Positions 886-38,642 of a stretch of DNA of 64,000 nucleotides are shown here, one piece after another. This DNA is from Candidatus Eiseniibacteriota bacterium (GTDB lineage Bacteria > Eisenbacteria > RBG-16-71-46 > CAIMUX01 > VGJL01). The notes below the pieces were generated by a model that was not told where the DNA came from, did no database searches, and worked only from the letters and a program-made list of their open reading frames with translations. Position 1 is the stretch's first letter; the number at the start of each line of letters is the position of its first letter. The DNA is taken from contig JBHGAY010000004.1 of the NCBI GenBank assembly GCA_041946735.1, positions 32,001 to 96,000 on the forward strand, read 5' to 3'. The position numbers were made by a program, and so were the translations under genes.

Positions 886-1923
886 TCATCCTCCCAGGAG
901 ACGAATGCTCGGGAGCGACACGCTCCCCGCAGATCGCTTGCCCGTCTCGACTGCGCGCTGGAACTCTTCCGCCCCTTTCGGCTTCTGCCACACGCTCTGC
1001 CGGATCGTCTGCGCGATCTCCTCGTCGGGCGCGCCACGCCGCAGCGGGCCGCGGAGATCGACGCCGAGCTGGGAGAAGAGGCACAGGCCGAGCCGGCCCG
1101 ACGCGGTCATCCGGATGCGGTTGCAGGCTCCGCAGAACGGGTCCGTCAACGAGGCGATGAAGCCGACGCCGCCGGCACCGCCCGCGAAACGGAAGCTCTC
1201 CGCGACCCGCGCGCCTCGCGCGGTCGCCGGTTCGAGCTTGCGCTCCTCCTCGATCCAGCTACGGACGCGATCGAGCGGAAGGACGAGATCCGGGCGCCAT
1301 GCGGTCCCGCAGAGCGGCATGAACTCGATGAAGCGGACCTCGATCGCGAGACGTTCGGCCATCTCGCAGAACGCGAGGACCTCGGCCCGCTCGAGATCGC
1401 GCATCGCCACGACGTTCACCTTCACGGCGAGCCCACTCGTGAGCGCCGTCTCGATCCCCCGCAGGACGAGGTCGATCTCGTCCCGGCCGGTGATGCGCTC
1501 GAAGCGCTGCCGATCGAGGCTGTCGAGGCTCACGTTCACGGAGTCGAGACCGGCGTCGGCGAGGCGGCGCGCGAGCGCGGAGAGGCGCGCGCCGTTCGTC
1601 GTGAGCGCGAGCGAGGCGATCCCTTCGATGCAGCGAAGGCGCTCGACGAGCGGGACCAGGTCGCGGCGCAGAAGCGGCTCGCCGCCGGTGAGACGGATCT
1701 TCCGGACTCCGAGGCGCGCGAAGATTCGGCATAGCCGCTCGATCTCTTCGGACGAAAGCAGCTCGTCGCGCGGCTGCAGCGCGAAGCCGCTCGCCGGGTG
1801 GCAGTAGGTGCAGCGGAAGTTGCACAAATCGGTCACCGAAACGCGCAGGTAGTCGAGCCGGCGGCCGTGGCGATCCTCGAGGCACGCCGAGCCCGTAGCG
1901 CGTTCCGCCGCATCCGGTCTCAA
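886..1923 (-). CDS. moaA: GTP 3',8-cyclase (molybdenum cofactor biosynthesis)
   Basis: LDYLRVSVTDLCNFRCTYC radical SAM motif, RLTGGEP, C-terminal FCGACNRIR...CL cluster, terminal GG; TTG start at 1923 overlaps the upstream stop (TTGA). Confidence 0.95.
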   Translation of the reverse strand: MRPDAAERATGSACLEDRHGRRLDYLRVSVTDLCNFRCTYCHPASGFALQPRDELLSSEEIERLCRIFARLGVRKIRLTGGEPLLRRDLVPLVERLRCIEGIASLALTTNGARLSALARRLADAGLDSVNVSLDSLDRQRFERITGRDEIDLVLRGIETALTSGLAVKVNVVAMRDLERAEVLAFCEMAERLAIEVRFIEFMPLCGTAWRPDLVLPLDRVRSWIEEERKLEPATARGARVAESFRFAGGAGGVGFIASLTDPFCGACNRIRMTASGRLGLCLFSQLGVDLRGPLRRGAPDEEIAQTIRQSVWQKPKGAEEFQRAVETGKRSAGSVSLPSIRLLGG

Positions 1924-2567
1924 CGTTCCGGCTCCTCCGCCGGCGCGGGCAGCCGGCCGCCGGCCGCGTCGACGACCGCGACGAGAAGCGAGAGGAGGTC
2001 GCGCAGGCATGGATAGGGACAGTCCGCGGCCTTCCCGGCCGCCAGGCCGACCCAGCTCGCGACGTGCCGCTCCAGGTACTCGGATCGAGCGCGCCGGATC
2101 TGCTCGAGACGCTCGGAATCCGTCTCCGCCGCCTCCCTCTCGCATAGATAGCCGAGGAAGTCGAGCTGGTGGCGGAGATGGTCGGAGGTCTCCTCGCTCC
2201 CCGCGGAGAGGCGCAGGCCGAACGCCGCGTAGAAGAGGATATTCTCGTGCAGGATCCGGGGGACCGGATCGCGGCGCAGATAGTGCGATTCGATCAGCGG
2301 GACGTGCGGATGCGGCGCGCCCACCTCGAACGTCTCGATGTATTGCGTCTCGTACTCCCTCGCGGACCGGGGAAGGGGCGCGGGTCCGGACAGACCGAGC
2401 CGGGCCGCGAGATCCGTCCAGGCTCCCCACGTTTCCTTCGATCGCAGGAACTCCCATTGCTCGGCGCCTGGGGGACGGAAGAGGTCGCGGACGAATCGAA
2501 AGGCCGAAGCGAGCGCGCGAGCCTCCTCGCGATCCTGCCCGTCCGTCGCCGGCGGGATGCCGCTCAC
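1920..2567 (-). CDS. TorD/DmsD/NarJ-family molybdoenzyme chaperone
   Basis: VPLIESHY...FYAAFGL...ETSDHLRHQLDFLGYL...YLERHVASW; GTG start overlaps the upstream stop (GTGA). Confidence 0.88.
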   Translation of the reverse strand: MSGIPPATDGQDREEARALASAFRFVRDLFRPPGAEQWEFLRSKETWGAWTDLAARLGLSGPAPLPRSAREYETQYIETFEVGAPHPHVPLIESHYLRRDPVPRILHENILFYAAFGLRLSAGSEETSDHLRHQLDFLGYLCEREAAETDSERLEQIRRARSEYLERHVASWVGLAAGKAADCPYPCLRDLLSLLVAVVDAAGGRLPAPAEEPER

Positions 2568-3315
2568 GGGGCGCCCCCGATCTCGCGCAGCTCGTACCAC
2601 ACGCTGTAGAACTTCAGTCCGTCCCGCTGCTGCTTCTCGCCGTCCCAAACGGCAAAGGCGATGGGCGTCCCGGCGGCGGCCGGCGGGATCTGGAAGACGC
2701 ACTCCCAACCATCGGCCGTGCGTCGGACCGATCCGGGGATCGCTTGCCCCGTGCGGGTCGTCGTCCCGCGGCCGGCCGCGATCAGCCGCTCGAAGCCGCG
2801 CGTCCCGTGCCAGTAGTAGAGGTCGACCGGATGGGCCGCGTCTCCCATCATCAGCGACGGGAAGCTGGCCGCGTCCTGCGCGTTCTGGACGTTCTGCGGG
2901 AACATCACGCAGGCGGCGTCCGCAAAACGCTCGATATCGAGCGAATGCGCCTTGTAGATCGTCGAGTCGCCGGCATCGGCGATCCTTTCCGGGGACCGCG
3001 CACGGCTGTCGGTCGGATCCGCCCACCGCATCCGCACGAAGGTCGCTTCACCATTGGAGAGCAGCGACACCGCGGCGGCGGGACGCGCGCCATCGTCCGG
3101 GGGATCTCCGACGTAGAGCGGCGGCGTGCGATTCAGGGCGACCTGCGTCTCGATCGCCCCCCGCCAGGCCGGCTCCTCTCCGGCGACGAGGCTCGCCGTC
3201 GCGGCGATCGTGCGACCGCACGGGATCGTCGCTTCCGCGGCGGCCCGGCCGGCGACGCCCGCCAAAAGCACGAGGAGCACGAGGAGCACGAATCCGAGAA
3301 GAATGCGCTGCCGCG

Positions 3316-3319
<4 letters not shown>
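2564..3319 (-). CDS. Ethylbenzene dehydrogenase gamma-like (EbdC/DOMON-like) heme b subunit
   Basis: Signal peptide; VRMRWADPT, FADAACVMFP, SLMMGD (Met ligand), AFAVWDGEKQQRDGLK (Lys ligand); ATGA overlap with the beta subunit stop. Confidence 0.85.
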
Positions 3320-4583
<1,264 letters not shown>

Positions 4584-4587
<4 letters not shown>

Positions 4588-7580
4588 GCCCTCCCCTGCG
4601 CGCTCGAGGACGCGTCCGCCCAGGCGGCGACGGGACCGTCATAGCGCTCGATGTCGACGCGGATGTCCCGGTTGTTGCCGGTCGGCCCCCAGTAGTTGAG
4701 GGCGAAGTTCAAGTGCCCGTACCCGCCGATCAGCTGCGTCGGTTTGATCTTGATGTACGTGAGCGATTGCCACCCGCCGCGCTGGAAGCCGAGGTATCGC
4801 TCCCACCCGTGGTACATCGTCAGGCGGCCCGTCTTCTCGCCCGGCAGGATCTTCGCGCGAACGACCGCTTCCCCCTGCTTGTTGAAGATCCGCACCCAGT
4901 CGTTGTCAGCGATGCTGCGCGCCTTCGCGTCGTCAGGGTGGATATAGACGATCGGCATCCCGCGCTGCAGGCGAAGCATGTAGCGATTGTCGCGCCACGT
5001 GGAATGGATCGACCAGCGCCCGTGCGGCGTGTTCCAGTAGAATGGATACTCCTCGTCCTCCACGAGCGGCTTGTGCACCGCGAGCTCTTCGCCGAGTTCG
5101 AGAAACCAGTCGTGATCGATGTAGAACTGCTGCCGGCCGGTGAGCGTGCGCCACGGGCGCTTGAGCTCGACCTGGTGGGTGAACGGCGTGTAGGTCCGAC
5201 CTTCTTCGATCTCGCTGTTCCACGTGTCGGGATCGATTCCGACGAAACGCTGCGGGCCGTCCTGCAGGCCGCGGTAGGTCATCCCCTTCGTCTCCTGCGC
5301 ATGCTCGAGGATGAAGTTCACCGCGTCCTCGTCCGTCGCGAGCTTCCCTTCTCCGGACCATGCCTCGTGGAGGCGCGTGAAGTCTCGTGTCCACTGCAGG
5401 TCCGCGTCCTCGAACGGCGCGAGTCCCCGCGCCGCGGCGATCTCCGACATCTTGCTTGCGAGAGCGGAGAAGATGTCCCAGTCGGTACGCGATTCGTAGA
5501 GCGGGTCGAGCACCTTGGAGAACGGATGGAGGAATGAGTGGCAGTCGGTCGAGTTGATGTCGGTCTTCTCATAGTAGCTCGACGCGGGGAGGACGATGTC
5601 GCTGTAGAGCGCTGTCGTGTCCATCCGGTAGTTGATGTCGACGATGAGGTCGAGATCCTTCCACAGGGATCGCAGGATCGCCTCGTTGCCCTTCGCCTGG
5701 TTCAGATAGTTCGCGCGCCACACGATGAGGGATCTCGGCTTTCGCGGCAGATCGTGCATCGTCTCCGGCGTGAGGGAGGCGAGATCCTGCTTCGGCCAGA
5801 GCGGCATCCACTTCTTCCGCACCGACTCGAGGATCCACGACTCGATCGGGCGTCCCTCGATCGGATGGGGGTCGCTCTGGCGCGAATGGAGGTAGCTCCA
5901 GAGCGTCATGTTCTGCATGCGCTGCTTCTTCGCCCCCTCGGGGAAGGCGAGCGCCTTGAAACCATGCTCCGGCCAGATCCGCTCCTGCCCGACGTAATGG
6001 TTGAAGCCGCCGCCGTTCTTGCCGACGTTCCCTGTGAGCGCGACGATCAGGATCATCGCCCGGTTCGCGAGGTCGTTGTGGTACCAGTGGTTCGTGCCGG
6101 CGCCGTGGATGATCATCGCCGGCTTGCGGGTGAACAGGCGCGCGAACTCGACGAGATCCGCTTCGGCGATCCCGCACGCCTCGGCGGCGCGGGCAGGCTC
6201 GTAGGCCGGGTCGGACAGCATCTCCTTCACACGGGCGAAGACCGTGGTCACCTCGGCCGTCGCGCCGTCGGCCAGCCGGACGGTCCAGACTCCTTCGAGA
6301 TCCGGATCGACCTGCCCCAGCTCGATGCTTCGCGCCGTCGACCCCATGCTGCCCGGCACCTGGGCCACCCGCCCGCTCCGCGCGTCGTGCACGTAGAAGA
6401 CCGCGTCCGGATCGTGCGTGAGCTTCGGCGGCTGGCTCGCAGGCGCCGTCGGATCGCTCACCTGCGATGCCGTCTTCTTCCGCTTCTCCCACGCCTCGAC
6501 CTTCGGCTCGCTCCCCCGCTCGGCCGGGTCGAGATCACTCTCGCGGAGAAGCTTGCCCGTGTCGCGGCGCACGAGCAGCGGCAGGTCTGTCTGCTCCTTG
6601 ATGTAGGGAATGTCGATCGCCCCGTTCTCGACGAGCCAGCGCGAGACGGCGTTGGCGAGGATCACGTCGCTCCCCGGGCGGATCCCGAGGAACAGGTCGC
6701 TATGGATCGAGCTGGAGTTGTAGTCGGGCGACACGCTCGCGATCGTGGCGCCGTTGTAGCGCGCTTCCCAGGCGAAGTGCGCGTCCGGGATGCGCGTCGC
6801 GTTGATGTTCGATCCCCAGAGGACGATGTGCTTCGCGTGGAACCAGTCCGCGCATTCGCACGACTCCGTCTGGACCCCCCAGGTGATCGGTTCGCCGGGC
6901 GGGAGATCGCAGTACCAGTCGTAGAAGGAGCAGAAGACGCCGCCGATGTAATGCGCGAGCCGCGAGCCGGCCGAGAACGAGACCGGGGACATCGCGGGAA
7001 TCACCGAGAAGAAGGTGTTCGTGTCGGGACCGTGCTGGTAGATGTTGTCGAGGAGCTTCGAAGCGATCTGCTCGAGCGCCTCGTCCCAGCTCGCCCGTCG
7101 CCACTTTCCCTCGCCCCGCTCGCCGGCCCGGATCAACGGATACTTCAGCCTCTGCGCGCCATACACGTACTCGACGAAGCAGGCTCCCTTCTGGCAGCCG
7201 CGCGGGTTGTAGTCGGGCACGTCCTGGCTGATTCGCGGATAGTCGGCCGCCTGCTCCTCGCGGAGCATGATGCCGTCCTTCACGTAGACCTTCCAGGAGC
7301 ACGAGCCGGTGCAGTTGGCGGAGTGCGTGGATCGCACGACCTTGTCGTAAGTGAAGCGGCCGCGGTAGAGGTTCTCCCAGCCCCGGTACGGATAGGTCCG
7401 CAGGGGATCGACGTCGACGACCTGGAACGACTCGAGCGCGCGCGTCGGCCGGCCGAGGAAGCCGAGGATTCCGATCCCCGCGCCCGCCGCGCCGACCTTC
7501 AAGAAGCCTCGCCGGTCGATCCGCTTGCCCTCGCCCACGGGGGCCTCCTTCTTCTTCCTGTTGTCCTGTCCGTCCTTCAT
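4584..7580 (-). CDS. narG: Tat-exported NarG-type molybdopterin oxidoreductase alpha subunit (periplasmic nitrate reductase/NXR-like)
   Basis: Twin-arginine DRRGFLK; THSANCTGSC...PRGCQKG FS0 motif; PAMSPVSF; FYDWYCDLPPGEP (Mo-ligand Asp); HYVGQE; TPHGRWSIHS; ATG at 7580 overlaps the cytochrome c stop. Confidence 0.85.
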
Positions 7581-9166
7581 TGCGCGGCCGCCTGTGTCGT
7601 CGTCGCTGTCGCCTCCGCGGTCGCCTCCGCCTTCGCGGTCGCCGGCGCTCCGCCTGCAGCAATCCCGAGCGTCCGGACATAGGAAACGACGTCGCGGATG
7701 TCCGCCGGTGAGAGCGCGCCGCGTGCCCCCCATGCCGGCATCGCGGTGTTCCGCCTGCCCTGGGTGATCGTCTCGATGAGGAAGGCGTCGCTCGCGTACG
7801 CCTGGAACGCCGGGGAATCGAGCGTCGGCGCGACGCCGCCCCGCCCGGCCGGGCCATGGCAACCGGCGCAGTTCTTCACGAAGAGAGACCGCCCGCGTCC
7901 CGGATCTCCGATCGGCCCCGCTGTCGCTTTCATCGGAATCTCCGAGCCGCCTGCCTCGCTGGCGGCCGGGCGGATCTCCTCGCCCGCCACCTCGCGACCG
8001 AGCACGAACGAGACGATCTGGCGGATGTCCTCCTCCGACATCCCCCCGGCCGCGAGACCCCAAGCCGGCATGATCGTTCCCCGGCGCCCGCTGCGGATCA
8101 TCGCCGCGACGTACGCCGGGCTCGCCGCCGCCTTGAACGATTCCGCGCGTACGGCCGGGATGAACGAGCGGAAGAACTTGTCGTAGCGCCCCAGCTCCCC
8201 CGTGTCGTGGCACGTGGAGCAGAAACGGTTGTACAGATCGGCGCCGGTCATCGGCGCTGGATTTGCGGACGCATAGATCATGAGATGCTTCTCGGGAGTC
8301 AGATACGAACCGGGCAGGTCGCGCTGCTGCTGCGCGAGGAGGAAGGTAGTCAACGCCTCGGTCTCGCCCCGCGACAGCCCGGGACACGGCATCTGGCTCC
8401 CGGCGACAACCGCCTGCGGGTCGGCGAAGTGTTCGATCAACCACTCCGGGACGGTGTGCGGTCCCTGGATGCCGGCCATCGGGAGATTCCCGCGGACCTT
8501 CAGCCCCTCGTTGTCGAGAGCCGGCCCCAGGCTTCCTCCGCGCCCGCCGAGCTTGTGGCAGGACCTGCAGCCCTTCGCCTCGAAGAGGGCCGCGCCGGCC
8601 GCGTACGTCTCTCCTCCGTTCTCAGCCACTTCGCGCGCTGCGTGGCAGACGCCGCACGACGACTGCGTCAGCTCGAGCGGCAGGAGGGGATAGTCCCAGT
8701 GTCGGTCCTCCGCCTTCGCGTCCTCGAAGGACATCGCGCGTCCCTGCCCGCGATGGCAGATCGTGCAGCCGAACCGGTTCGGATCGTGCCACTGGAGATA
8801 GGCCCCCGGATGGACCCGGTGGGGATTCGCCACGTCGGTCATCCGCGGATCGTCGACCCCGTTGTGGCAGGAGACGCATCGGTCGATCGTCCCGATCTCC
8901 GGCAGGACGACCTGGCGCATTTCCACATGGAAGTCGTTCGCGATCTTCCGTCCCCGGTCATCGGTCGCCTTCGCGCTCAGAATGCGCTGGTACTCCCGCT
9001 GGTAATGCCTCCAGGGATTCCACACGTTCTCGCGGAGCGCGGCAGCGCCGAGCAAGGCGATCGTCAGGACGCTCATCGAGAGCAGCGCGAGCTTCACACG
9101 CCGGTCCCGCCGCTCCGCCTCCCGGCGCGTCGCCTGCGAGATCCGGGAGCCGTCCTTCTCGTTCAT
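7577..9166 (-). CDS. Membrane-anchored hexaheme c-type cytochrome
   Basis: N-terminal TM helix; six CxxCH motifs (CVSCH, CTICH, CGVCH, CRSCH, CSTCH, CAGCH); the last three are followed by SQMP/IMPAWG/AMPAWG distal-Met motifs. Confidence 0.92.
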   Translation of the reverse strand: MNEKDGSRISQATRREAERRDRRVKLALLSMSVLTIALLGAAALRENVWNPWRHYQREYQRILSAKATDDRGRKIANDFHVEMRQVVLPEIGTIDRCVSCHNGVDDPRMTDVANPHRVHPGAYLQWHDPNRFGCTICHRGQGRAMSFEDAKAEDRHWDYPLLPLELTQSSCGVCHAAREVAENGGETYAAGAALFEAKGCRSCHKLGGRGGSLGPALDNEGLKVRGNLPMAGIQGPHTVPEWLIEHFADPQAVVAGSQMPCPGLSRGETEALTTFLLAQQQRDLPGSYLTPEKHLMIYASANPAPMTGADLYNRFCSTCHDTGELGRYDKFFRSFIPAVRAESFKAAASPAYVAAMIRSGRRGTIMPAWGLAAGGMSEEDIRQIVSFVLGREVAGEEIRPAASEAGGSEIPMKATAGPIGDPGRGRSLFVKNCAGCHGPAGRGGVAPTLDSPAFQAYASDAFLIETITQGRRNTAMPAWGARGALSPADIRDVVSYVRTLGIAAGGAPATAKAEATAEATATTTQAAAQ

Positions 9167-9200: not shown

Positions 9201-10829
9201 TCAGTGAACCGGCCATGACGACTTGCTCCAATAGAAGCCCCAGTTGGGACCGCGCAGCTCCGATCCCACGAAAGTCAGGACGACGAAGCCGACAAGGAAG
9301 CAGAGGAACAGCGCGATCGCCGCCGCGCGCGTCGATCCGGTGCGGTGCAGGATCGCGAGGGACCATCCGGCGTAGAGGGCGGTGAGGATCGTCCCGGGAT
9401 TGAGCGCGATGATCACGATCTGCGGAATCGACGGGAACCAGGTGCGCAGCCATCCGAACCGCACGGGGATCGCGACGGCGAGCACGGCGGCGACGAGCGC
9501 GAAGAGCGCGCTCTGCGCGGCGATGCGCCTGCCCCGCGGCCCGCTCAGCACGACGCCCGCCTGCTCGCGCTCCCGGTCGAGGAACGGAATCAGCCCGAGC
9601 CCCAGGATCGCGATCGCCGGAATCACCATCCCGCCGACGAAGGCCGAGTAGGAAACCATCTCCTGGAGCCCGAGGAAATACCAGGGAGCCTTCGCCGGAT
9701 TCTCCGGAACGGCGGGATTCGCGAGCTCCTTCAGCGGCGCGTTCCAGAACAAGCCGAGGACGAGACAGGCGGCTGCGCAGGCCATGAGGACGAAGAGCTC
9801 CGCGCGCAGCACGTACGGCCACGCCGGAATCGTGTCCGCGGGATCGACGTTTACCGCGGGAGTGCGGTCACGCACGATGCACATGAGGCCGTAGGTCTTT
9901 CGCGGCGCCTCGCTCGGCGCCGCGGGCACGCTCCCCGGAATCGCCGAGCCCTTGCCCGCCGCCGTCGGCGGCCCGTCGGGACGGCCCAGCCCCCCGTCCT
10001 TGCGGATTCGCCAGAAGTGGATCCCCGCCACCATCGCGAGGGCGAGCGGCAGCACCATGACATGGAGCAGGTAGAAGCGGATCAGCGCCTCTTGCCCGAC
10101 CGCGTTGGCGCCCAACAGCAATCGTTTCTGGAACCCGCCCGGATCGAAGAAGCCGGTGATCCCGATCGCGTCGGTCAGTTCGCGGGGGGAACCGGCGATG
10201 TTCGCGCCGATCGTGATAGCCCAGTAGGCGAGCTGGTCCCAGGGGAGAAGGTACCCGGTGAAGGAGAGTCCGAGCGTCAGCACGAAGAGCACCATGCCGA
10301 CGAGCCAGTTGAACTCGCGCGGCTTCTTGTAGCTCGCCGTGAAGAACACCCGAACCATGTGCACGAGGACGGTCACGACCATCAGGTGCGCCGCCCAGCG
10401 GTGGATGTTGCGGATGAAGCGGCCGGTCGGCACGACGTAATGGATGTCCTTGATGCTGTCGTACGCCTGGTCGATCGAAGGCTTGTAGTACACCATCAAC
10501 AGGATCCCGGTCGCGACGAGGATGAGGAAGAACGAGAGCGAGGCCATCCCCATCGCCCATGTGGTCGAGAAGCGCAGCGTGCGAACATTGACGCGCGTGG
10601 AATGAAGGTGGAGGAAGAGGTTCGAGAAGATCGTCTGCGACCGCGTCCGGTCCGTCTCGGGACGCCCGTGACGGAAGAAGGAGTCCCGCAGGTTTTCGGG
10701 AAGGCGGCGCAGGTTCTCCACGAACGGCCCGAACCCGCCGTCATGCTCGCGCTCGCCGTCGCGGCCGCGTTCGCCGTCACGCTGGCGGTCGCGGTCACGC
10801 TCGCGGCCGCGCGACTCGATCGTCGCCAT
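9201..10829 (-). CDS. Cytochrome b of a Rieske/cytb complex (b6-like plus subunit IV, fused)
   Basis: IHRWAAHLMVVTVLVH and LHVMVLPLALAMVAGIH heme-ligand helices, SFTGYLLPWDQ, KAPWYFLGLQE in place of PEWY; strong GAGGAGG RBS. Confidence 0.93.
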   Translation of the reverse strand: MATIESRGRERDRDRQRDGERGRDGEREHDGGFGPFVENLRRLPENLRDSFFRHGRPETDRTRSQTIFSNLFLHLHSTRVNVRTLRFSTTWAMGMASLSFFLILVATGILLMVYYKPSIDQAYDSIKDIHYVVPTGRFIRNIHRWAAHLMVVTVLVHMVRVFFTASYKKPREFNWLVGMVLFVLTLGLSFTGYLLPWDQLAYWAITIGANIAGSPRELTDAIGITGFFDPGGFQKRLLLGANAVGQEALIRFYLLHVMVLPLALAMVAGIHFWRIRKDGGLGRPDGPPTAAGKGSAIPGSVPAAPSEAPRKTYGLMCIVRDRTPAVNVDPADTIPAWPYVLRAELFVLMACAAACLVLGLFWNAPLKELANPAVPENPAKAPWYFLGLQEMVSYSAFVGGMVIPAIAILGLGLIPFLDREREQAGVVLSGPRGRRIAAQSALFALVAAVLAVAIPVRFGWLRTWFPSIPQIVIIALNPGTILTALYAGWSLAILHRTGSTRAAAIALFLCFLVGFVVLTFVGSELRGPNWGFYWSKSSWPVH

Positions 10830-10845: not shown

Positions 10846-11313
10846 CTACGCCTTGTAGAAGGTCATCGGAGGGACTTCCCGCTCCGCGTCGACCAACAGA
10901 GACCCGTCCGCCGCCTGCGACACTTCCAGCCAGCGCAGCGGGCGCGGCGCCGGGCCGCGCCGCAGCTCGCCGTCCGGCCCGAAGCGCGACCCATGGCAGG
11001 GGCAGGCGAATCCATCCTCCGATTCGCCTACGATGCATCCGAGATGCGTGCAGACGAGCGACAGCGCCGCGATGCCCCGCGCGTCGGAGATCAGCCGGAC
11101 GTTGCGCTCGGGAACGACACGCGCCGTGCCGGCGGGGAACTCCTCCGGCCTGCCGACACGGAAGCGGCTTCCCGCCTCCGGCAGCACGCTCGGCTTCGGG
11201 AGCCGGGCCATCCCGATCACAGCGCCAAAGATGGCGAGCGCGGCGCTCCAGGAGCCGGCAAGGCCGAGGAAGTCGCGGCGAGGGATCGGTTCGGGTTCTA
11301 GGCGATGCGACAT
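10846..11313 (-). CDS. Rieske [2Fe-2S] subunit
   Basis: Tat-like PRRDFL plus TM helix; CTHLGC and CPCHGSRF boxes; GPAPRPL. Confidence 0.93.
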   Translation of the reverse strand: MSHRLEPEPIPRRDFLGLAGSWSAALAIFGAVIGMARLPKPSVLPEAGSRFRVGRPEEFPAGTARVVPERNVRLISDARGIAALSLVCTHLGCIVGESEDGFACPCHGSRFGPDGELRRGPAPRPLRWLEVSQAADGSLLVDAEREVPPMTFYKA

Positions 11314-13283
11314 TTCGGGTTCTCCTGGAAATGGAACCGCTCCATCGTGATCGCTCCGGTCGGACAGCGCTCCGCGCACAGCCCGCATCGGATGCAGATC
11401 GTCTCGTCCTTGAGGATCGCGGAGGCCCGGTCCGGTTCCGTCCCGTCGAGCTGAGCCTCGAGGACGGGCGCGAGCGAGACCTCGCCGGTCAGGCGGTCGA
11501 CGGAGACGATCCTCAGGCAGAGCTCCGGACAGACGTCGACGCAGCCCCCGCACAGGATGCACTTGTCGCCGTCGAAGATCGTGTTGACGCCGCAGTCGAG
11601 GCAGCGCGATGCCTCGCGGCGCGCCTGCTCGGCCGAGTACCCGATCTCCACCGGAGCCGCCTGCGAGCGGAGCCTCTCTGCAACCGGGGCGGCCGGTAGC
11701 GCGACACGGCGGATCGCTTCGTACCCCGGCTCGCGCGCGTAGTCGGGAATCCCCAAGTGCAGCTCGAGCGCCTCTGCTCCGATCGCCCGGCCGGTCGCCG
11801 CCTCGTAGATCGCCCGCGCGACGGCCTTCCCCGACGCGACGGCGTGGATCAGTAGTTTCGGGCCGTAGGCCAGATCTCCGGCCACGAAAACGTCCGGCGC
11901 GTTCGTTCGCCCCGTCACCGGATCGCAGGCGAGAAATCCGCGCGGGGATAGCTCCAGCCCGTCTCGCTGCGGATCGACGAAGCCGACGTCGATCCCCTGC
12001 CCGATGCTCGTCAGGACCGTGTCGCACTCGATCGTTTCGGTCTGCGTCTCGTCGAATACCGGAGCGAAGCGTCGATTCTCGTCGAAGACCCGCAGGCACT
12101 TCTTGAACACCACGCCGCGCAGGCGCCCGGAGGCGTCCTTGAGGATCTCGGATGGGCCCAGCCCGTTGCGGCGCACGATCCCCTCCTCGTCCCCCTCGAG
12201 GATCTCGACGTCGTCGGCCGGCATTTCCTCGAGAGACTCGAGGGAGCAGAGCCAGACCTTGCCGGGCGCGCGGCCGCCGGGACCCGCCGCTTCCATCTCG
12301 CGCTCGATCTCGCGCAGCGCGGTGCGCGCTGCGTCACTCGCGATCTGGCGAAGGACGGTGCGGCCCACGTCGTAGGCGACGTTCCCTCCACCGATCACGA
12401 CGACCCGGTTGCCGATCGCGGGCGGACGGCCGAGGGAAACGTCACGCAGGAACTCCACGCCTCCGAGGACGCCGGCGGCGTCGGCGCCCGGGATCGGGAG
12501 CGCGCGGGATCGCTTCGCTCCCACCGCGATCACGACCGCGTCGTGGCGCGCGCGCAACTCCGCGAAGGTGAGATCCCGGCCGACCTGGCAGTTCGTGACC
12601 GCCTTGACACCCATCTCCAGAATCACCTCGACCTCGGCGCGGATCAGATCGCGCGGGAGTCGATACTCCGGCACGCCGACCGCAAGCATCCCGGCGAGGA
12701 CCGGCTCCATCTCGTAGATCGTGACCGCGAAGCCGAGCAGCGCCAGATCGTGCGCCGCTGCGAGGCCGGCCGGACCGCTGCCGATGATGCCGGCGGAGCG
12801 GCCGGAGACCGGAGGAACGTCTCCGGAAAGGAGGGACTGCAGAAGGGGGAGGATCTCGTCGACGTCCCGGCAGGGCTGCGGCGCATGGCGACGGGCGGCC
12901 TCTTTCAGGAGCTCGATCAACGAACGGCCGGTGTGGGGCGTCGATGCGGGCACCGCCTCGACGCCGTACTTCTCGCAGACGAAACGTTTGAGGGCGCGGA
13001 TGGCGATCGGCCGGTCCAGTTCGCCGCGGCGGCACGCAACCTCGCACGGCGCGCCGCAGATCCGCCCACAGATGGAGGCGAGAGGGTTCGGCCCTCGGGC
13101 GATCAGGTAGGCCAGCTCGTCGTCCCCGGCCGCAATGGCGCGCACGTAGCCGCGGGCGTCGGTGTGCACGGGGCAGGCCGCCTGGCATTTGATCTGCTCC
13201 TTCCAATAGGAGAGATCCGGCACGCGGACCTCGGCGCCGTTCGAGGAGTCGATCGGCTCCCAGCCGTTGCCGTCGCGGCTCAC
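11298..13283 (-). CDS. GltD/NfnB-like FAD/NAD(P)-binding oxidoreductase with C-terminal 2x[4Fe-4S] domain
   Basis: CQAACPVH, CGRICGAPCEVAC, GSGPAG, GGGNVA, EASRCLDC, CILCGGCVDVCP, CIRCGLCAERCP; no signal peptide; GTGA overlap with the Rrf2 stop. Confidence 0.9.
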   Translation of the reverse strand: MSRDGNGWEPIDSSNGAEVRVPDLSYWKEQIKCQAACPVHTDARGYVRAIAAGDDELAYLIARGPNPLASICGRICGAPCEVACRRGELDRPIAIRALKRFVCEKYGVEAVPASTPHTGRSLIELLKEAARRHAPQPCRDVDEILPLLQSLLSGDVPPVSGRSAGIIGSGPAGLAAAHDLALLGFAVTIYEMEPVLAGMLAVGVPEYRLPRDLIRAEVEVILEMGVKAVTNCQVGRDLTFAELRARHDAVVIAVGAKRSRALPIPGADAAGVLGGVEFLRDVSLGRPPAIGNRVVVIGGGNVAYDVGRTVLRQIASDAARTALREIEREMEAAGPGGRAPGKVWLCSLESLEEMPADDVEILEGDEEGIVRRNGLGPSEILKDASGRLRGVVFKKCLRVFDENRRFAPVFDETQTETIECDTVLTSIGQGIDVGFVDPQRDGLELSPRGFLACDPVTGRTNAPDVFVAGDLAYGPKLLIHAVASGKAVARAIYEAATGRAIGAEALELHLGIPDYAREPGYEAIRRVALPAAPVAERLRSQAAPVEIGYSAEQARREASRCLDCGVNTIFDGDKCILCGGCVDVCPELCLRIVSVDRLTGEVSLAPVLEAQLDGTEPDRASAILKDETICIRCGLCAERCPTGAITMERFHFQENPKCRIA

Positions 13284-13774
13284 CGCGTCCGCCGTCCCGC
13301 CGCGGCCACCTTGCCGCGCGCCTGCTGCGCCACTTTGCCGCCGGGCGCCTGCTCCGCCGCCTTGGCGCCGCGCGCCTGCGCGACCGCCTCGCCGAGCGTG
13401 CGCTTCCGGAGGGAATCGACCAGCGCGTCTCTCAGCTCGCTCCATTCCCAGTGAAGGATGCAGGCGCTCGTGTCGGAGCAGCGCGATTGCCCGAGCAGGC
13501 AGACCCGCTTCGTCCCGAACGTGTCGAATGCCTGGACGATCTGCAGCAGCGAAATGCGGCCGGCGGAGCGAGCGAGGCGAAAGCCTCCCGTCTTCCCCCG
13601 CTGGCTTTCCAGGATCCCTGCGGAGGCGAGCACGCGAAGGATCTTCGCCAGATATTGCGGAGGAAGATCGACGACGCGAGCGATCTCGCGGTTGAGGAAC
13701 CAGTCTCTCTCCTCGCTCTCGGCCGCCATGTACGCGAGGGCGCGGATGGCGTATTGGGCGCTCGTGGAAATCAT
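13280..13774 (-). CDS. Rrf2-family transcriptional regulator (probable Fe-S sensor)
   Basis: SAQYAIRAL, YLAKIL, SQRGKTGGFRLAR; CLLGQSRCSDTSACILH with three Cys. Confidence 0.92.
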   Translation of the reverse strand: MISTSAQYAIRALAYMAAESEERDWFLNREIARVVDLPPQYLAKILRVLASAGILESQRGKTGGFRLARSAGRISLLQIVQAFDTFGTKRVCLLGQSRCSDTSACILHWEWSELRDALVDSLRKRTLGEAVAQARGAKAAEQAPGGKVAQQARGKVAAAGRRTR

Positions 13775-13781
13775 GAAGGGG

Positions 13782-13810
13782 ATATTAGGACCCGTTAGTC
13801 CGAAATGCAA
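13782..13810 (-). promoter_or_regulatory. Sigma70-type promoter with embedded inverted repeat
   Basis: Minus strand TTGCAT-N17-TAATAT ending 7 nt before the Rrf2 ATG; spacer holds GGAC-N6-GTCC. Confidence 0.65.
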
Positions 13811-13853: not shown

Positions 13854-14486
13854 TCAAACAGTCTCGGTCAGATCTTCCCGGCGGTTCACGTTGCGGAGGG
13901 CGCTCGCGACCCGGATTCTCCCGACGAAAGCGGCGGAGAGAAGGGTCGCGCCCACGCTCTCGATCACCCGGTGCATGGACGTTCCTTCGGGTGCCGAGGA
14001 GAACGCCCGTAGGACGGATCGGTGGTACAGGCCGGGGAACGGATGCAGTCGCCCGCCGGGCTCCCCATAGCAGACGACCGGCTCCGTCCGTCCTGCGGCT
14101 GGCCCGGTGCCACCGGCCCGGATCGACGCGAGAAGTGGGCGGAGCACTGCAGAGGTCACTCCGGGCATGTCGACGGCGAGGATGAGCGCCCAGTCGGACG
14201 ATTCGCTTGCAGCATGGGTGAGCGCGACCCTCACCCCCTCCACGGGACCGAGGCCGGGACGCTCACCCGTCAGGACAGGGGCGCGATACCGCCGGAAAGG
14301 CGCCGGATCGGGAGCGACGATCCGCGGATGGATGTTCAACTCCCGCATCGCCCGAAGCGCGAGCGCGAGGAGACTCCTCCCCCGGTGCGTCGCCAGGGCC
14401 TTGTTCGATCCGAACCGCCGCGACGCGCCACCGGCGAGAACGAAGCCGGAGACGCGCTCGTTCCCCTTCGTCCCGGCCCTCCTCAA
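13854..14486 (-). CDS. mobA: Molybdenum cofactor guanylyltransferase
   Basis: VLAGGASRRFGSNKA, GLGPVEG, LAVDMP, HPFPGLY, NVNRREDL. Confidence 0.9.
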   Translation of the reverse strand: MRRAGTKGNERVSGFVLAGGASRRFGSNKALATHRGRSLLALALRAMRELNIHPRIVAPDPAPFRRYRAPVLTGERPGLGPVEGVRVALTHAASESSDWALILAVDMPGVTSAVLRPLLASIRAGGTGPAAGRTEPVVCYGEPGGRLHPFPGLYHRSVLRAFSSAPEGTSMHRVIESVGATLLSAAFVGRIRVASALRNVNRREDLTETV

Positions 14487-15868
14487 TGGAGGAACAACAG
14501 CTTCCCGCGGCCCGCCCCGTCGGTTCCGCGCACCTCGTAGAAGTACGCCCCGGCCGGAACGGCCCGGCCCGCGTCGTCCTTGCCGTCCCAGCGCACGCGA
14601 TGCGATCCCGCCGCGTCATGCGAACGTTCGATGCTGCGCACCTGACGCCCCGACGCGTCGTGGATCGTGATCGACACCACTCCGGCGTCCACCGCTCGAT
14701 AGCGGATCCACGTGGCGCTGCGGAACGGGTTCGGCGAGGCGAAAGAGAGCAGAAGCCCGCCCCCTCCCTCCGCGCTCTCGATCCCGGCCGGGGCAAGCTG
14801 CCGGTAGAGGATGAGCTGGGTCTGCAGTGACCAAATCGGCTCGGTGTGCCCCGTGTAGTTGTAGTTGCAGTCTGTGCAGGTCTGTCCCGACACGCAGTTG
14901 GGATTGTCGGGGCGGCAGTAGTTCTCGTACGGCATGATGCCGTAGTCGAGCACGGCGGTCTCCCCCGGAGTCACCGACTCGGTGATGTCGGCGTCCCACG
15001 GGTCGACCTTGTCGCCCGGACACCACCCGGCGCGGTCGTACTGCCACGTCCCCCCCTGCGGGCTGCACAGGTTGCTCTCGCAGTCGGAGCGCCAGACATT
15101 GTGCCAGATCGAGTCGGCGTTCGCCTTGATCCAGTGGCGGCGATTGCAGAATTCGGCGCAGTTCAGCGTGTTCCCCTGGCCGTGACCGGTCGCGATCGCG
15201 CGGAACTTCACCGCGTCGGTTCCCTCCGGAATCGCAACTTCCATCGGACGCAGGTGGTTCTCGTGCGGATCGTTCGGATTGCCGTAGACGAGGTAGCCGT
15301 TCGTCCACAGGTTGCGCACCTCCACGGGAACGAGCGACGGCGTTCCTTCGACGAACGCGAAGTCGATCGTGACGAGCCAGCCGCGCGTCCCTCCGATCCA
15401 GCTCTCGATGTAATTGACGAGCGTCACCTCGTCGTGCAGGAGCATCCGGTAGTCGGTGACGTCCAGAACCCAGGTGCACGTCCCTGGCCTCGGGCCTCCG
15501 GTAATGTCGTACGGGGTGACGATGCGGGCGATCTCGATGTCTCCCCCGGGGCGCTGGACGCGAAGCCATCCGAGCCGGTCCCAAGGATCACAGTCATCGG
15601 GCGTGGGCGGACAGCCGATCTGATAGAAGAGGAGGACCTTGTCGCAAAGGAGCTCGAGTCCGGGAAGCGTAAAGGTCCGTACGTGCGGTTCGGCCCAGTT
15701 GTAGAAGTCCTGGTCGAAGGTCCGCACCCAGGTGGTGTCGCCCGGCGCAGCGGCGGCAGCGGAGAAGACGCCGGCGAACAGCAGCAGGGCGAGAGCGCCG
15801 GTGAACACGCGCGAAGCGGACGCACCGGCAATCTTGATCGAGAACGAGTTGCAGGAGCTGTCCCTCAT
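14483..15868 (-). CDS. Secreted peptide-N-glycosidase F-like protein with FlgD-type C-terminal domain
   Basis: DPWDR, EIARIVTPY, TGHG, CAEFC, RAGWCPG; C-terminal PNPF...WDGKDDAGRAVPAGAYF; GGAGGT RBS. Confidence 0.85.
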   Translation of the reverse strand: MRDSSCNSFSIKIAGASASRVFTGALALLLFAGVFSAAAAAPGDTTWVRTFDQDFYNWAEPHVRTFTLPGLELLCDKVLLFYQIGCPPTPDDCDPWDRLGWLRVQRPGGDIEIARIVTPYDITGGPRPGTCTWVLDVTDYRMLLHDEVTLVNYIESWIGGTRGWLVTIDFAFVEGTPSLVPVEVRNLWTNGYLVYGNPNDPHENHLRPMEVAIPEGTDAVKFRAIATGHGQGNTLNCAEFCNRRHWIKANADSIWHNVWRSDCESNLCSPQGGTWQYDRAGWCPGDKVDPWDADITESVTPGETAVLDYGIMPYENYCRPDNPNCVSGQTCTDCNYNYTGHTEPIWSLQTQLILYRQLAPAGIESAEGGGGLLLSFASPNPFRSATWIRYRAVDAGVVSITIHDASGRQVRSIERSHDAAGSHRVRWDGKDDAGRAVPAGAYFYEVRGTDGAGRGKLLFLH

Positions 15869-16196
15869 CGGACCTCCGACCCATCCGGCCGTCCGGATGG
15901 GACTGTGGATGCTGCGCCGGGTGGGCTGCGCCGGTCGCCTGCCCAAGTCCGGCGGTGGACCGCGCTTTGCGCGAGTCTCGGGCGGATCGCGACGACCATG
16001 GGATGCGGCCGAATCGACCGTGGAGAAGACTAGCCGTTCCGCCATCGAGCCCGCAATATCACGGATCTTGACGGAACACGGAACACGGCCGCAGAGCCCT
16101 CGCACCGCAACTCTCCCGGCACAGGCGCGAAGAGCCTCCGCAGACTTTCATTGGCGCGCGTAGGCCCTCGATCATCGCCAATCGCCGAAGGAAGAA

Positions 16197-19100: not shown

Positions 19101-19634
19101 GTTGCGGAGGAACTGACAGCGGTAGAGAGTCGGTGTCGTGGACTGGTCCTGGTACCACGCTGCCACGCCGTCTCCGTCGCGGAAGATGCAGTCGCGGATC
19201 GTCGGCCGGGCGCCGCCGCCGCAGAAGATTGCCGACCCGTCCCCCGTCCCGTTCGCCACGGTCACCCCCTCGAGCTTCGCCATCGGAGATTCGTGGCTGA
19301 GGAAGTGAAATCCACGATGCGCTCCTGCGCAATCGACGACGCATGCTTCGGGATGGCCCGACCTCGACCGGATCGTGATCGACTTGCCGTGGTAGTTCGC
19401 GTCCCAGTTGCCGGGGCCGGTGAACGTTCCGTCCGCGAGCTCGAGGACATCCCCGCCGCCGCAGCCGTCGATTCCTGCCTGGATCGTCGGGAAATCCCCG
19501 GTCCCATCGGGACGGATCTGATAGACATCGCCCATTGCGGGCGAATGGATGAGGGGGACCGACACGAAGAGGACCAGAATCGTGAAGACTGCGCGCCTCG
19601 CGGAGGAGAGCAAGGGGAGCGGGGCGGCTTGCAT
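16197..19634 (-). CDS. Secreted right-handed beta-helix protein, three tandem modules plus FlgD-type domain
   Basis: Three RxDGxGDxPTIxAxx-initiated modules with GGAI/FxxN repeats; C-terminal WDGKNAAGVDVVSGLY; AGGAGG RBS. Confidence 0.88.
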   Translation of the reverse strand: MQAAPLPLLSSARRAVFTILVLFVSVPLIHSPAMGDVYQIRPDGTGDFPTIQAGIDGCGGGDVLELADGTFTGPGNWDANYHGKSITIRSRSGHPEACVVDCAGAHRGFHFLSHESPMAKLEGVTVANGTGDGSAIFCGGGARPTIRDCIFRDGDGVAAWYQDQSTTPTLYRCQFLRNTTVQHGGAIYWFGPTTYYEGVIEGCLFEGNRAKEYAGAIYLSNLTRATVRRCVFRENHAGWGGGAAFTDGGAHLTLEDCLFLRNSCDLEPGGAVLIRQEGYMDVTRCTFVGNRAAVGDGSALAALWSYPSSVERCIFASNGAGKAITWTQFASLGIECTDIFGNSDGDWIGALDGRQLTNDNLHVDPLFCDPEADDYRVSQISPCDSTNSPVCGRIGAFGRGCEWDVLTVRPDGSGDHPTIQAAIDAAADGAVILLADGTFSGDGNHDIELRGKRIRIRSESDDPAACTIDCRGSGPEPHRGFWIHEGEGSGTVLEAVTIRGGYAESDGGAVLCEGASPLVRRCRLLENRAAGAGGGIACANEASPTVEDCDIAANQAAYQGGALDCGLLCQPRLARNTLVGNSAPDGSAVHFEGGEHEIAKTIAAWNTGGDAIGCAAGATVTLLCSDLYHNGGDWVGCIAGQGELNGNRSVDPIFCDAARYDLGLESHSPCAPQYVGDCWQIGSHTVECMSILVVRADGSGDYPTIDAAVSGALPGEIVQLEDGIYRGPGNRDVSFRGKAITVRSASGNPETCVIDCEGTPAHPHRGFDFITGEGNDSVIEGITIQGGHAWLDGSPSSQHGGAIRCLNGSDPTIRNCRFVENRAMSAGGAIFFQNTDGVKLFDCVFQKNQAADGGGAIAGENMHVEITRCTFLRNVSNAAGAIAIHSGGGNILIQGCTFLDNEATVGGGAIGTTDPWQDLLIENCTFHGNSGGSGGAIAAWENSPMVLRNNIITGSSGGSMFAGDDVTIECCDFWGNAGGDWMGTWGQLLGQYGNISEDPRYCGESEPAAPFGLNEDSPCAPDANPDCGLIGAWPVSCGVGGAPEDEGQVVRTAQIVSLSPAPFSQRTTISLEIPSGAGSRPVILELFDVGGRLVRTLVNGPLPSGRNRIDWDGKNAAGVDVVSGLYLLRLRAGSESATARVLRIR

Positions 19635-19685
19635 GAGTGCCTCCTGGGTGGTAGCACGAAGATCGCTTCGAAAAGGGGCGTAACT

Positions 19686-19714
19686 AGTATAGTGCCCAGG
19701 CGCTCTTCGAACAA
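19686..19714 (-). promoter_or_regulatory. Possible sigma70 promoter for the beta-helix gene
   Basis: Minus strand TTGTTC-N17-TATACT about 50 nt upstream of the ATG. Confidence 0.4.
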
Positions 19715-19878
19715 CGTAACGCATGCGCCACAACTCTTGACGTTACCCATCCGCCGGCCTGCTCTTGATCGCATCGCTTCGGTGCGGTAGCTTCGCGCGT
19801 TCGCCGCGCGGCGGCGGCGTTCCTTCCAAACGCCGGAATCCAAGCTTCGAGCGCACGCAAGCGCGTAGGAGGTCAGTG

Positions 19879-24781: not shown

Positions 24782-25038
24782 GGACGGACACTCCCTCTTC
24801 GGTTCGGATCAGGCTCGACTCGTGTGCGAGTTCGTTCGGACTCGGGTTGGACTCGGTGCTCGGACTCGGTTCGGCTGGACTCGGGCTGGACACGGCGGGC
24901 GGACTCGGTCCAACCGGACTCGGTTCCCTCGACCTTCCGCCGTTCACGGCTCGCTCGGACTGCTCGGACTTCTGGGCCCCATTCGCCTGGCCGCAGGCGC
25001 GGCACAGCTCGGACCCCTCCGACTCCTGTCGCTCTCAT
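24778..25038 (-). CDS. Possible 86-aa low-complexity linker ORF containing GGACTCGG repeats
   Basis: ATGA overlaps at both ends (TolC stop and adaptor start); repeated TES/VQPES units. Confidence 0.3.
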   Translation of the reverse strand: MRATGVGGVRAVPRLRPGEWGPEVRAVRASRERRKVEGTESGWTESARRVQPESSRTESEHRVQPESERTRTRVEPDPNRRGSVRP

Positions 25039-26842: not shown

Positions 26843-26871
26843 GAGTCTTTCTCTCCCTCGGCGGGCCACTA

Positions 26872-38638: not shown

Positions 38639-38642
38639 CCGG

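Follow-up and report, generated by a model that had tools for sequence, protein, structure and literature searches.

The DNA analysed here, hereafter the window, is a stretch of 64,000 nucleotides from a Candidatus Eiseniibacteriota contig, and our subject is an eight-gene module on its minus strand that would encode a periplasm-facing, Nar-type oxyanion reductase together with a Rieske/cytochrome b complex. The predicted catalytic alpha subunit, a Nar-type protein of the molybdenum bis(pyranopterin guanine dinucleotide) (Mo-bisPGD) class with a twin-arginine translocation (Tat) leader, lies at 4584..7580 (-). Its open reading frame (ORF) has its stop at 4584 and its ATG at 7580, giving 998 residues. 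A longer ORF that begins with GTG and extends to 8444 was rejected as the alpha gene because it collides with the cytochrome c gene upstream. The stop of that gene shares the bases ATGA with the alpha start at 7580; the alpha stop and the beta start are joined in the same way by GTGA, and the beta stop and the gamma start by ATGA. These 4-base overlaps fix the alpha start and indicate translational coupling of the four genes.

Alpha is flanked on both sides by genes for putative redox partners. The beta subunit (3316..4587, -; 423 residues) is a four-cluster iron-sulfur (FeS) protein with 15 core cysteines and passes TIGR03478 over residues 5-325 (493.2 bits against a cut-off of 480.7). Past the family model it bears a C-terminal extension of ~95 residues (3316-3600, -) with extra cysteines at positions 388, 399, 402 and 408; the orthologues of the nearest subclade measure 396, 429, 388 and 416 residues (loci L009, L012, L033 and L075, respectively), while those of Acidobacteriota measure ~335. 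The gamma subunit (2564..3319, -; 251 residues) resembles the periplasmic haem-b proteins EbdC and Orf7, starts with a hydrophobic signal or anchor and passes PF09459 EB_dh (43.6 against 33.3 bits). It is followed by delta, an assembly chaperone of the NarJ/TorD type (~1920..2561, -; PF02613 Nitrate_red_del, 57.6 against 22.2 bits), the start of which is uncertain, as its ORF extends upstream to 3026 and overlaps gamma. On the other side of alpha lies a membrane-anchored hexahaem cytochrome c (7577..9166, -; 529 residues); its six CxxCH motifs recur in 23 of 24 orthologues from the family of close alpha relatives described below, the remaining one having four. The cytochrome b (9201..10829, -; 542 residues) joins a b6-like N-terminal half to a subunit-IV-like part and further helices. 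It passes PF00033 (131.3 against 27.2 bits), while the ExtP (247.3 bits), cytochrome b6 (185.2 bits) and ExtQ (46.3 bits, residues 338-454) models all match below their cut-offs. The Rieske [2Fe-2S] protein (10846..11313, -; 155 residues; PF00355) has RRDFL in its leader and contains the CTHLGC and CPCHGS boxes. The eighth gene encodes a cytoplasmic NAD(P)-binding FeS flavoprotein of the GltD/NfnB type that carries an additional 2x[4Fe-4S] domain at its C-terminus. Its 715-residue ORF (11298..13445, -) overlaps the Rieske start by 16 bases, and the first 60-80 residues are rich in Arg, Gly and Ala with no counterpart in the orthologues. Since the latter measure only 618-642 residues, the true start is probably internal to the ORF.

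Alpha is a type II protein of the dimethyl sulfoxide (DMSO) reductase family, and this identity is far beyond chance. TIGR03479, which describes type II alpha subunits, matches residues 23-978 over profile positions 1-913 with 1115.9 bits (cut-off 984.75). The best match among solved structures has E = 1.7e-266, and there is a solved structure 45% identical to alpha. The protein has an Asp as molybdenum (Mo) ligand and the N-terminal H/C-x3-C-x3-C motif of the FS0 cluster, here HSANCTGSC, and a four-FeS-cluster beta, a haem-b gamma and a chaperone are encoded alongside it. Searched as a degenerate DNA pattern, the Mo-ligand loop turns up a single time in the window and in none of 100 shuffles. 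The twin-arginine leader RRGFLK lies at nt 7514-7497 (-); with the sequence DRRGFLK it passes TIGR01409 narrowly (17.1 against 16.7 bits). Other landmarks, all on the minus strand, are the FS0 loop HSANCTGSCSW (nt 7325-7293), the Mo-ligand loop FYDWYCDLPPGEPITWGVQT (nt 6926-6867) and, within it, Asp225 (nt 6908-6906), which aligns with the Mo-ligand Asp of PcrA and NarG. His498, the NHWYH histidine equivalent to E. coli His546, is at nt 6089-6087, and Glu533, the gate residue at the position of PcrA Trp461, at nt 5984-5982. A sequence-only reading of this DNA, made before any database search, had reported a Tat motif in a protein of ~998 residues, which the ATG-start ORF and the TIGR01409 match bear out. 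The five motifs that it quoted are all present, at residues 84-96, 194-202, 219-238, 257-267 and 525-533, as are, in our alignment of diagnostic residues, the active-site Asn, Asp and Gln-Thr that it described as shared with Nar and nitrite oxidoreductase (NXR).

Residues of the NarG type occupy every diagnostic position checked, in the window protein as well as in each of the 11 family rows aligned: the Asn and Trp of the FS0 loop, a Mo-site pattern Y-4x-D-11x-QT (Y220-4x-D225-11x-Q237-T238, the NarG form), the histidine equivalent to E. coli His546, and Glu at the position of PcrA Trp461. Both PMC8301774 and PMC6650914 reportedly rely on Youngblut 2016 for the meaning of these positions. The residue roles themselves were taken from PMC8301774, PMC6650914 and PMC6050957; here and below, statements credited to papers by accession follow the portions of those papers that were available. 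According to these sources, PcrA Trp461 is replaced by Glu in NarG (PMC6650914, PMC8301774), and the Mo-site pattern ends in QN in Nitrospira and in QM in Nitrotoga (PMC6050957). The FS0 loop HSANCTGSCSW of the family is of the same Trp-ended type as that of cytoplasmic and haloarchaeal NarG; the Trp is missing from all 8 PcrA-clade rows aligned, which end in His (5), Phe (2) or Gln (1). The Mo loop reads FYDWYCDLPPGEP in the family, FYDWYCDLPPASP in cytoplasmic NarG and FYDWYSDLPPGQP in haloarchaeal NarG, and mostly F[FY]DWY[GS]DHPTGQT in the PcrA clade. The NHWYH histidine is shared by the family, cytoplasmic NarG and the PcrA clade and is Asp in haloarchaeal NarG, while the gate position is Glu in the family and in both kinds of NarG and Trp in 8/8 PcrA-clade rows and 3/3 rows of their sister group. 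A protein-collection search (7997 hits among 8000 candidates scored) lists 120 relatives. FYDWYCDLPPG and HYVGQE occur in all 120 of these close relatives, NCTGSCSW in 118 and IPAMSPVSF in 112, and a twin-arginine motif is found in 99 of 116 family leaders.

One of the 120 listed relatives, a partial protein of 743 residues that one source assigns to a Candidatus Eisenbacteria metagenome-assembled genome (MAG), is 100% identical to the window alpha; the remaining 119 are 64-79% identical and carry generic names or none. Among solved structures, full-length Azospira PcrA scores 886-890 bits, E. coli NarG 546, ethylbenzene dehydrogenase EbdA 395 and Kuenenia NxrA 216. The W461E mutant of PcrA (5e7o) slightly outscores the wild type (4ydd), because the window protein has Glu at that position. 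In plasmid records the best matches are haloarchaeal NarG (43-47%), followed by ClrA (35%) and cytoplasmic NarG/NarZ (33-35%). By BLASTP, the window alpha is 62-77% identical to genome-derived family members, 45-53% to a second bacterial group that includes Anaeromyxobacter MAGs, 43-46% to 17 sampled PcrA-clade proteins, 43-46% to haloarchaeal NarG, 35% to ClrA and 34% to cytoplasmic NarG. The equal values of 43-46% place alpha equidistant from PcrA and haloarchaeal NarG. Among representatives clustered at 50% identity, there was no separate full-length PcrA or haloarchaeal NarG; the protein's own cluster (P0052) matched at 70% and the next at 43%. The PcrA-clade proteins were instead gathered by searching with a PcrA-like fragment of 242 residues (P0211), and the clade is anchored by P0272, which scores 1852 bits against 4ydd.

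We built three trees from rows hand-picked among 328 sequences of at least 850 residues: a FastTree of 85 rows, a quick IQ-TREE of 48 rows and a careful IQ-TREE of 38 rows (LG+C20+F+G4), the last being the 48 rows minus P0127, P0003, L075, L073, P0331, P0307, L005, P0366, P0129 and P0358. SerA, DdhA, the NxrA of Nitrospira and Nitrotoga and other periplasmic NxrA, Methanoperedens NarG and thermophilic archaeal NarG lie outside the row sets. All three trees recovered the same groups. In the careful tree (supports given as ultrafast bootstrap and SH-aLRT), the family, haloarchaeal NarG, the Anaeromyxobacter group, cytoplasmic NarG and a trio of Trp-gate sisters of PcrA each reached 100/100, and the PcrA clade 100/99. 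A NarG superclade (100/100) unites these groups apart from an outgroup of ClrA-type and four unnamed proteins, and the ClrA-type outgroup clade (100/100) excludes the window protein. A 99/96 branch separates haloarchaeal NarG, P0349 and the outgroup from PcrA, the family, the Anaeromyxobacter group, cytoplasmic NarG and L074. The family is sister to the Anaeromyxobacter group, cytoplasmic NarG and L074 together (91/85), and the Anaeromyxobacter group pairs with cytoplasmic NarG at 97/94; the stem of cytoplasmic NarG is long (0.97), so that its exact position is unsure. Forcing the Tat-type, Glu-gate NarG-like proteins, haloarchaeal ones included, into one clade cost 19.65 log-likelihood units (p = 0.0115 in the approximately unbiased test), a result weakened by the group having been named after inspection of the tree. 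The window protein thus falls neither inside the haloarchaeal periplasmic NarG clade nor inside the PcrA clade, and judged from these phylogenies the family is a distinct, widespread bacterial clade that is neither haloarchaeal periplasmic NarG, PcrA nor cytoplasmic NarG.

These relationships modify the sequence-only reading. Its claim that alpha tracks haloarchaeal NarG closely did not hold, as the 43-46% identity is the same as that to PcrA, the 99/96 branch lies between the two, and His498 stands where the haloarchaeal enzyme has Asp. The broader proposal of a bacterial relative of archaeal periplasmic Nar agrees with the gene order of Haloferax mediterranei, the Tat leader and the active site. 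Its exclusion of the PcrA and EbdA types is supported by the position outside the PcrA and ClrA-type clades, which emerged from a tree of the kind it had proposed, run here with haloarchaeal NarG, PcrA and ClrA, and by a score of only 395 bits for EbdA against 890 for PcrA. Its separation of alpha from cytoplasmic NarG fits the 34% identity, whereas the topology places cytoplasmic NarG on the family's side (91/85, 97/94).

Two neighbouring groups in the trees deserve mention in their own right. The unnamed proteins P0350, P0342 and P0352, sister to PcrA, share its gate Trp (GQW) while keeping a Nar-like D[LF]PPGST Mo loop, and their FS0 loop ends in CRW or CRF; judged by these motifs, they may represent a possible intermediate between Nar-type and Pcr-type enzymes. 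The Anaeromyxobacter group constitutes a second bacterial clade of Tat-type, Glu-gate NarG-like proteins (loci L031, L039, L062, L048 and L082; proteins P0357, P0358, P0363, P0365 and P0368). In addition, archaeal MAG fragments labelled Desulfurococcales or 'uncultured archaeon' (L090, L104 and L117; 638 bases, short fragments only) carry the bacterial-type FYDWYCDLPPGEP and not the haloarchaeal YDWYSD.

We next consider how far the module is conserved. A scan of genomes with a degenerate Mo-loop pattern that admits the PcrA, haloarchaeal and family variants yielded at least 118 loci, 80 of them with flanking DNA. The matches listed include no PcrA type, Methanoperedens, Nitrospira, Hydrogenobacter or cultured family member, an absence that is uninformative there. 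Synteny was assessed by tblastn of the window proteins against 82 loci at E = 1e-6, a threshold at which weak matches may be missed. All seven partner genes of alpha (flavoprotein, Rieske protein, cytochrome b, hexahaem cytochrome c, beta, haem-b gamma and chaperone) occur in the same order in 26 of the 32 family loci listed. The six incomplete loci are explained by contig edges, at which all of them end, and every listed locus with at least 6.5 kb upstream and at least 2.6 kb downstream is complete (22/22). Acidobacteriota account for 22 of the 32 loci and unclassified bacteria for 3, with one each from Ignavibacteriota, Zixiibacteriota, Pseudomonadota, Armatimonadota, Verrucomicrobiota, Planctomycetota and Eiseniibacteriota. 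The outlier L074, from a Clostridiales MAG, has the full gene set at lower identity. Of 40 haloarchaeal loci listed, 40 have the cytochrome b, 38 beta, 35 gamma and 33 the Rieske protein, and flavoprotein and hexahaem cytochrome c were found in none of them; the Anaeromyxobacter-group loci are without Rieske and cytochrome b genes. A tblastn query with the Alicycliphilus chlorite dismutase gave no homologue in any of the 82 loci or within the window's first 20 kb. Beyond the module, the genes are not conserved; the commonest flanking families in 30 listed loci are an Rrf2 regulator (5), NnrS (4), a DUF438-hemerythrin-PAS protein (4) and an alginate-export-like porin (3). The first three of these are linked to nitric oxide (NO) or nitrite stress. 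Our literature search found no earlier description of the bacterial eight-gene module; Martinez-Espinosa 2007 and ten Brink 2013 fell outside that search and may bear on novelty. The available portions of PMC10100899, PMC9751292, PMC3903129 and bioRxiv 10.1101/2020.05.19.103440 hold nothing on this clade, and bacterial periplasmic Nar candidates in Firmicutes are mentioned in PMC6299022, which cites Martinez-Espinosa 2007 for them.

The electron-transfer half of the module resembles complexes of the anammox bacterium Kuenenia. The two best of 73 Protein Data Bank (PDB) matches of the Rieske protein are 9rk4 (E = 2.6e-22) and 9rk3 (E = 4.6e-16), which are Kuste4569 and Kustd1480, respectively, of Kuenenia stuttgartiensis (PMC12954380, Table 1). 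The flavoprotein finds its best PDB match in 9bov/9bp5 (1.2e-80), and 9bp5 is named as a structural homologue of the Kuenenia NAD(P) oxidoreductase subunit (PMC12954380). In the Kuenenia complexes, a b6-like cytochrome b and a subunit-IV-like protein are described as accompanied by a cytochrome c with six or eight haems and, on the cytoplasmic side, by a putative NAD(P) oxidoreductase (PMC12954380). The window holds the same kind of set, in that a Rieske protein, a b6-like cytochrome b with a subunit-IV-like part, a multihaem cytochrome c and an NAD(P)-binding FeS flavoprotein are encoded together, as in Kuste4569-4574 and Kustd1480-1485; for the cytochrome b, cytochrome c and flavoprotein this likeness rests on description rather than on direct sequence comparison. 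In contrast to the Kuenenia complexes, that of the window shares an operon with a NarGH-type enzyme, has its cytochrome b and subunit-IV-like part fused, and is without an octahaem protein of the hydroxylamine oxidoreductase (HAO) type. When residues 61-542 of cytochrome b and residues 198-715 of the flavoprotein were modelled together, using a 17-row alignment of our own making for each protein, the prediction gave weak support for a complex, with a score of 0.47 in three runs, against 0.00 for the best control; the three runs share at least 62% of their contacts, and the predicted local distance difference test score (pLDDT) of the partner is at least 74. In calibration, the mark was reached by 116/157 solved complexes and 2/215 mismatched pairs. 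At scores of 0.60 or less, the mark was reached by only 18 of the 157 solved complexes and by both of the passing mismatches, and these counts hold only roughly here because our own alignments were used. In our reading, the flavoprotein probably sits on the inner side of cytochrome b as one more subunit.

A close parallel to the reductase half is found in the haloarchaeal NarGH with NarB/NarC of Haloferax mediterranei (pHM300) and Haloarcula, with which the module shares a Tat-type alpha, the NarG-type FS0 loop, the Mo loop and the Glu gate. The H. mediterranei nar cluster also has the same order of Rieske protein, cytochrome b, alpha, beta, EbdC-like haem-b gamma and TorD-type chaperone, and the Rieske and cytochrome b genes lie directly upstream of narG in the window, Haloferax and Halomicrobium alike. 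However, haloarchaeal NarG differs by its 43-46% identity, by YDWYSD in place of YDWYCD and by Asp in place of His498, and the haloarchaeal cytochrome b is only 26-40% identical to that of the window. The haloarchaeal complex is reported to be related to actinobacterial and Thermus ones (PMC3509893), whereas the window cytochrome b scores best with b6-type models. PcrAB of Azospira (4ydd, 5e7o) aligns over residues 62-983, is likewise periplasmic and has the Asp Mo ligand and the conserved gate Phe and Tyr. It differs in its gate (Trp461 against Glu), in its Mo loop (DHPTGQT against DLPPGEP) and at the end of its FS0 loop (His against Trp), and it forms a separate clade with other partner genes; no cld lies near the window alpha. 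Cytoplasmic NarGHI (E. coli; Cupriavidus necator pHG1) shares the FS0 loop type, YDWYCDLPP, NHWYH and HYVGQE and falls on the same side of the tree (91/85), yet its NarG is ~250 residues longer, is without a Tat leader and has Arg where the family has Lys in GCQKG. Its membrane anchor is NarI, in place of which the window has a haem-b gamma and a Rieske/cytochrome b complex. The Methanoperedens nar cluster was considered as a possible member and set aside, as by description it is another set of genes (NarG, NarH, NarJ, Orf7, two HCO-II-like and a NapH-like protein), and its Rieske/cytochrome b genes are encoded away from it (PMC4683180).

Taken together, we consider it probable that alpha, a member of a distinct bacterial clade, is the catalytic subunit of an oxyanion reductase of the Nar type that is exported by Tat and faces the periplasm; respiratory nitrate reduction is its most likely function. 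The relatives of known function on all sides of it reduce nitrate. We infer that electrons would follow the haloarchaeal model, in which a Rieske/cytochrome b complex feeds a periplasmic haem b and then NarH and NarG, a scheme based mainly on gene order and antimycin sensitivity (PMC3509893), growth of haloarchaea on nitrate being antimycin-sensitive (PMC3509893). By analogy, the co-encoded Rieske/cytochrome b complex would oxidise menaquinol, and one electron would pass from the Rieske cluster through the hexahaem cytochrome c, the haem-b gamma, the four beta FeS clusters and FS0 to Mo, where nitrate would be reduced to nitrite outside the cytoplasmic membrane. With nitrate reduced there, no nitrate importer would be needed. 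For comparison, the nitrate Km of Haloferax NarGH is 0.82 mM (PMC8301774, Table 1).

Several observations weigh against this assignment. The best solved relative is a perchlorate reductase, and the narG equivalog model TIGR01580 stays below its cut-off (645.5 against 1084.15 bits, in five stretches); this model was built on the larger cytoplasmic enzyme of ~1240 residues. Likewise, gamma (TIGR03477, 90 against 169.85) and the chaperone (TIGR03482, 90.8 against 152.3) fall short of their TIGR cut-offs, nir, nor, nos and nrf genes are absent from the window, and all close relatives found come from uncultured organisms. Nar-type enzymes also reduce chlorate and perchlorate in vitro (PMC8301774, PMC6299022), so that the substrate range is not fixed by the residues examined. 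Finally, both reaction directions occur among enzymes of this family, within which nitrite oxidoreductases arose several times (PMC6050957); the direction of the reaction cannot be read from sequence, as the sequence-only reading had also held.

The last point bears directly on the possibility that the enzyme is instead a nitrite oxidoreductase working oxidatively in the periplasm, with the Rieske/cytochrome b complex and the NAD(P) subunit serving reverse electron flow to NAD(P)H. The orientation would match that of the NXRs of Nitrospira, Nitrospina, Nitrotoga and anammox bacteria, NXR having evolved repeatedly (PMC6050957), and Rieske/cytochrome b complexes bearing an NAD(P) oxidoreductase have, by the available account in PMC12954380, been studied only in anammox bacteria, whose Rieske proteins are the closest to that of the window. 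One source even labels some relatives 'nitrate reductase / nitrite oxidoreductase, alpha subunit'. Against this, Kuenenia NxrA (7b04_B) reaches only 216 bits (E = 8.6e-63) compared to 890 for PcrA and 546 for NarG, the Mo-site pattern ends in QT as in NarG rather than QN or QM, and no terminal oxidase or carbon-fixation gene is part of the module or recurs beside it. By established thermodynamics, moreover, electrons from nitrite (~+430 mV) need an input of energy to reduce quinone or NAD(P)+. The same Mo-loop motif also appears in MAGs labelled Thermincola, Bacillota, Thermotogae and Bipolaricaulia, although in short fragments only, with the clade not assigned. These lineages are anaerobes. 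We regard nitrite oxidation as rather improbable.

That chlorate or perchlorate is the main physiological substrate, or that the enzyme is a (per)chlorate reductase outright, is very unlikely in our estimate. The case for it begins with PcrA, the best solved match over its full length (886-890 bits), and with PcrA-clade identities as high as those to haloarchaeal NarG; archaeal periplasmic Nar reduces both oxyanions, and Archaeoglobus respires perchlorate with a Nar-type enzyme and without chlorite dismutase (PMC6299022). Yet the PcrA gate Trp is Glu in the window protein and in all 120 listed relatives, the W461E structure 5e7o scores above wild type 4ydd, and the tree separates the family, as a clade of its own, from PcrA and its Trp-bearing sisters (100/100). 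Chlorite dismutase is missing from the first 20 kb of the window and the 82 loci by tblastn and from 27 window ORFs by Pfam. A still broader choice is left by TIGR03479, which covers the selenate, dimethyl sulfide and hydrocarbon enzymes SerA, DdhA and EbdA as well, and by the EbdC and EbdD type of the gamma and chaperone; a substrate of this kind nonetheless seems extremely unlikely, with identity to ClrA at 35% and EbdA at 395 bits against 890 for PcrA. Furthermore, the ClrA-type proteins and their four unnamed relatives form the outgroup across a 100/100 branch and are without the YDWY.DLPP and HYVGQE loops.

Periplasmic nitrate reduction could also be one half of a larger scheme, in which the module forms one supercomplex and nitrate reduction is the downhill branch of quinol-based electron bifurcation, an idea that we hold to be unlikely, if less so than the alternatives above. 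One menaquinol electron would travel via the Rieske protein, hexahaem cytochrome c, gamma, beta and alpha to nitrate (~+430 mV), and the other would reach the cytoplasmic flavoprotein by way of the b haems and of FeS clusters, yielding NAD(P)H (-320 mV). Formation of NAD(P)H by quinol bifurcation is proposed, and unproven, for the anammox complexes, and for Kustd1480-1485 no downhill partner reaction has been put forward (PMC12954380). If bifurcation does operate here, the downhill partner would be written into the operon, and its distribution would be wide, taking in soil Acidobacteriota together with at least seven further phyla.

The surroundings of the module include genes related to its cofactor. 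MoaA, the GTP 3',8-cyclase that performs the first step of molybdenum cofactor synthesis, lies downstream at 886..~1881 (-; TIGR02666, 338.9 against 284.05 bits); its ORF extends to 2457, and the family match starts at ORF residue 193. A MobA-like guanylyltransferase, of a type required for the guanine dinucleotide form of the cofactor, lies upstream at 13854..14486 (-), with all matches below equivalog cut-offs. Between it and the flavoprotein is an Rrf2-family transcription regulator (13280..13810, -), for which only the superfamily model passes; its score does not allow assignment to NsrR (47.1 bits against a cut-off of 182). A homologue occupies the same upstream place in 6 of the 32 listed family loci and lies downstream of the module in a seventh (L041). 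No chlorite dismutase, nitrite reductase, NO reductase or nitrous oxide (N2O) reductase was found among the 27 other window ORFs scanned with Pfam.

Elsewhere in the window, four large predicted secreted proteins end in an FlgD_ig-like domain: a PNGase-F-like protein (14483-16105), a beta-helix/PMP-repeat protein (16197-19733), a 907-residue protein without other domains (30717-33440) and a 1701-residue C25 (gingipain-type) peptidase (57715-62820). Their common C-terminal domain suggests a common sorting signal. A resistance-nodulation-division (RND) efflux set, comprising an AcrB-type pump, an HlyD-type adaptor and an outer-membrane factor (20553-26978, -), adjoins a GAF-domain sigma-54 activator (27274-29400, -) and appears unrelated to the nitrate reductase module. 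Two DUF362 proteins are encoded at 37676-40250 (+) and 42692-43756 (-), one of them adjoining a 608-residue multi-[4Fe-4S] protein.

With regard to the family as a whole, many soil and sediment metagenome genes counted as narG or nxrA probably belong to this clade. If its members do reduce nitrate in the periplasm through a Rieske/cytochrome b complex, their energy yield, need for nitrate transport and inhibitor sensitivity would differ from those of textbook NarGHI. With its fixed coupling to a subunit that binds NAD(P), the module provides a second system, outside anammox bacteria, in which to test whether Rieske/cytochrome b complexes can form NAD(P)H by bifurcation. Finally, the phylogeny suggests an origin among periplasmic Nar-type enzymes for cytoplasmic NarG as well as for PcrA, which would bear on the history of nitrate respiration.

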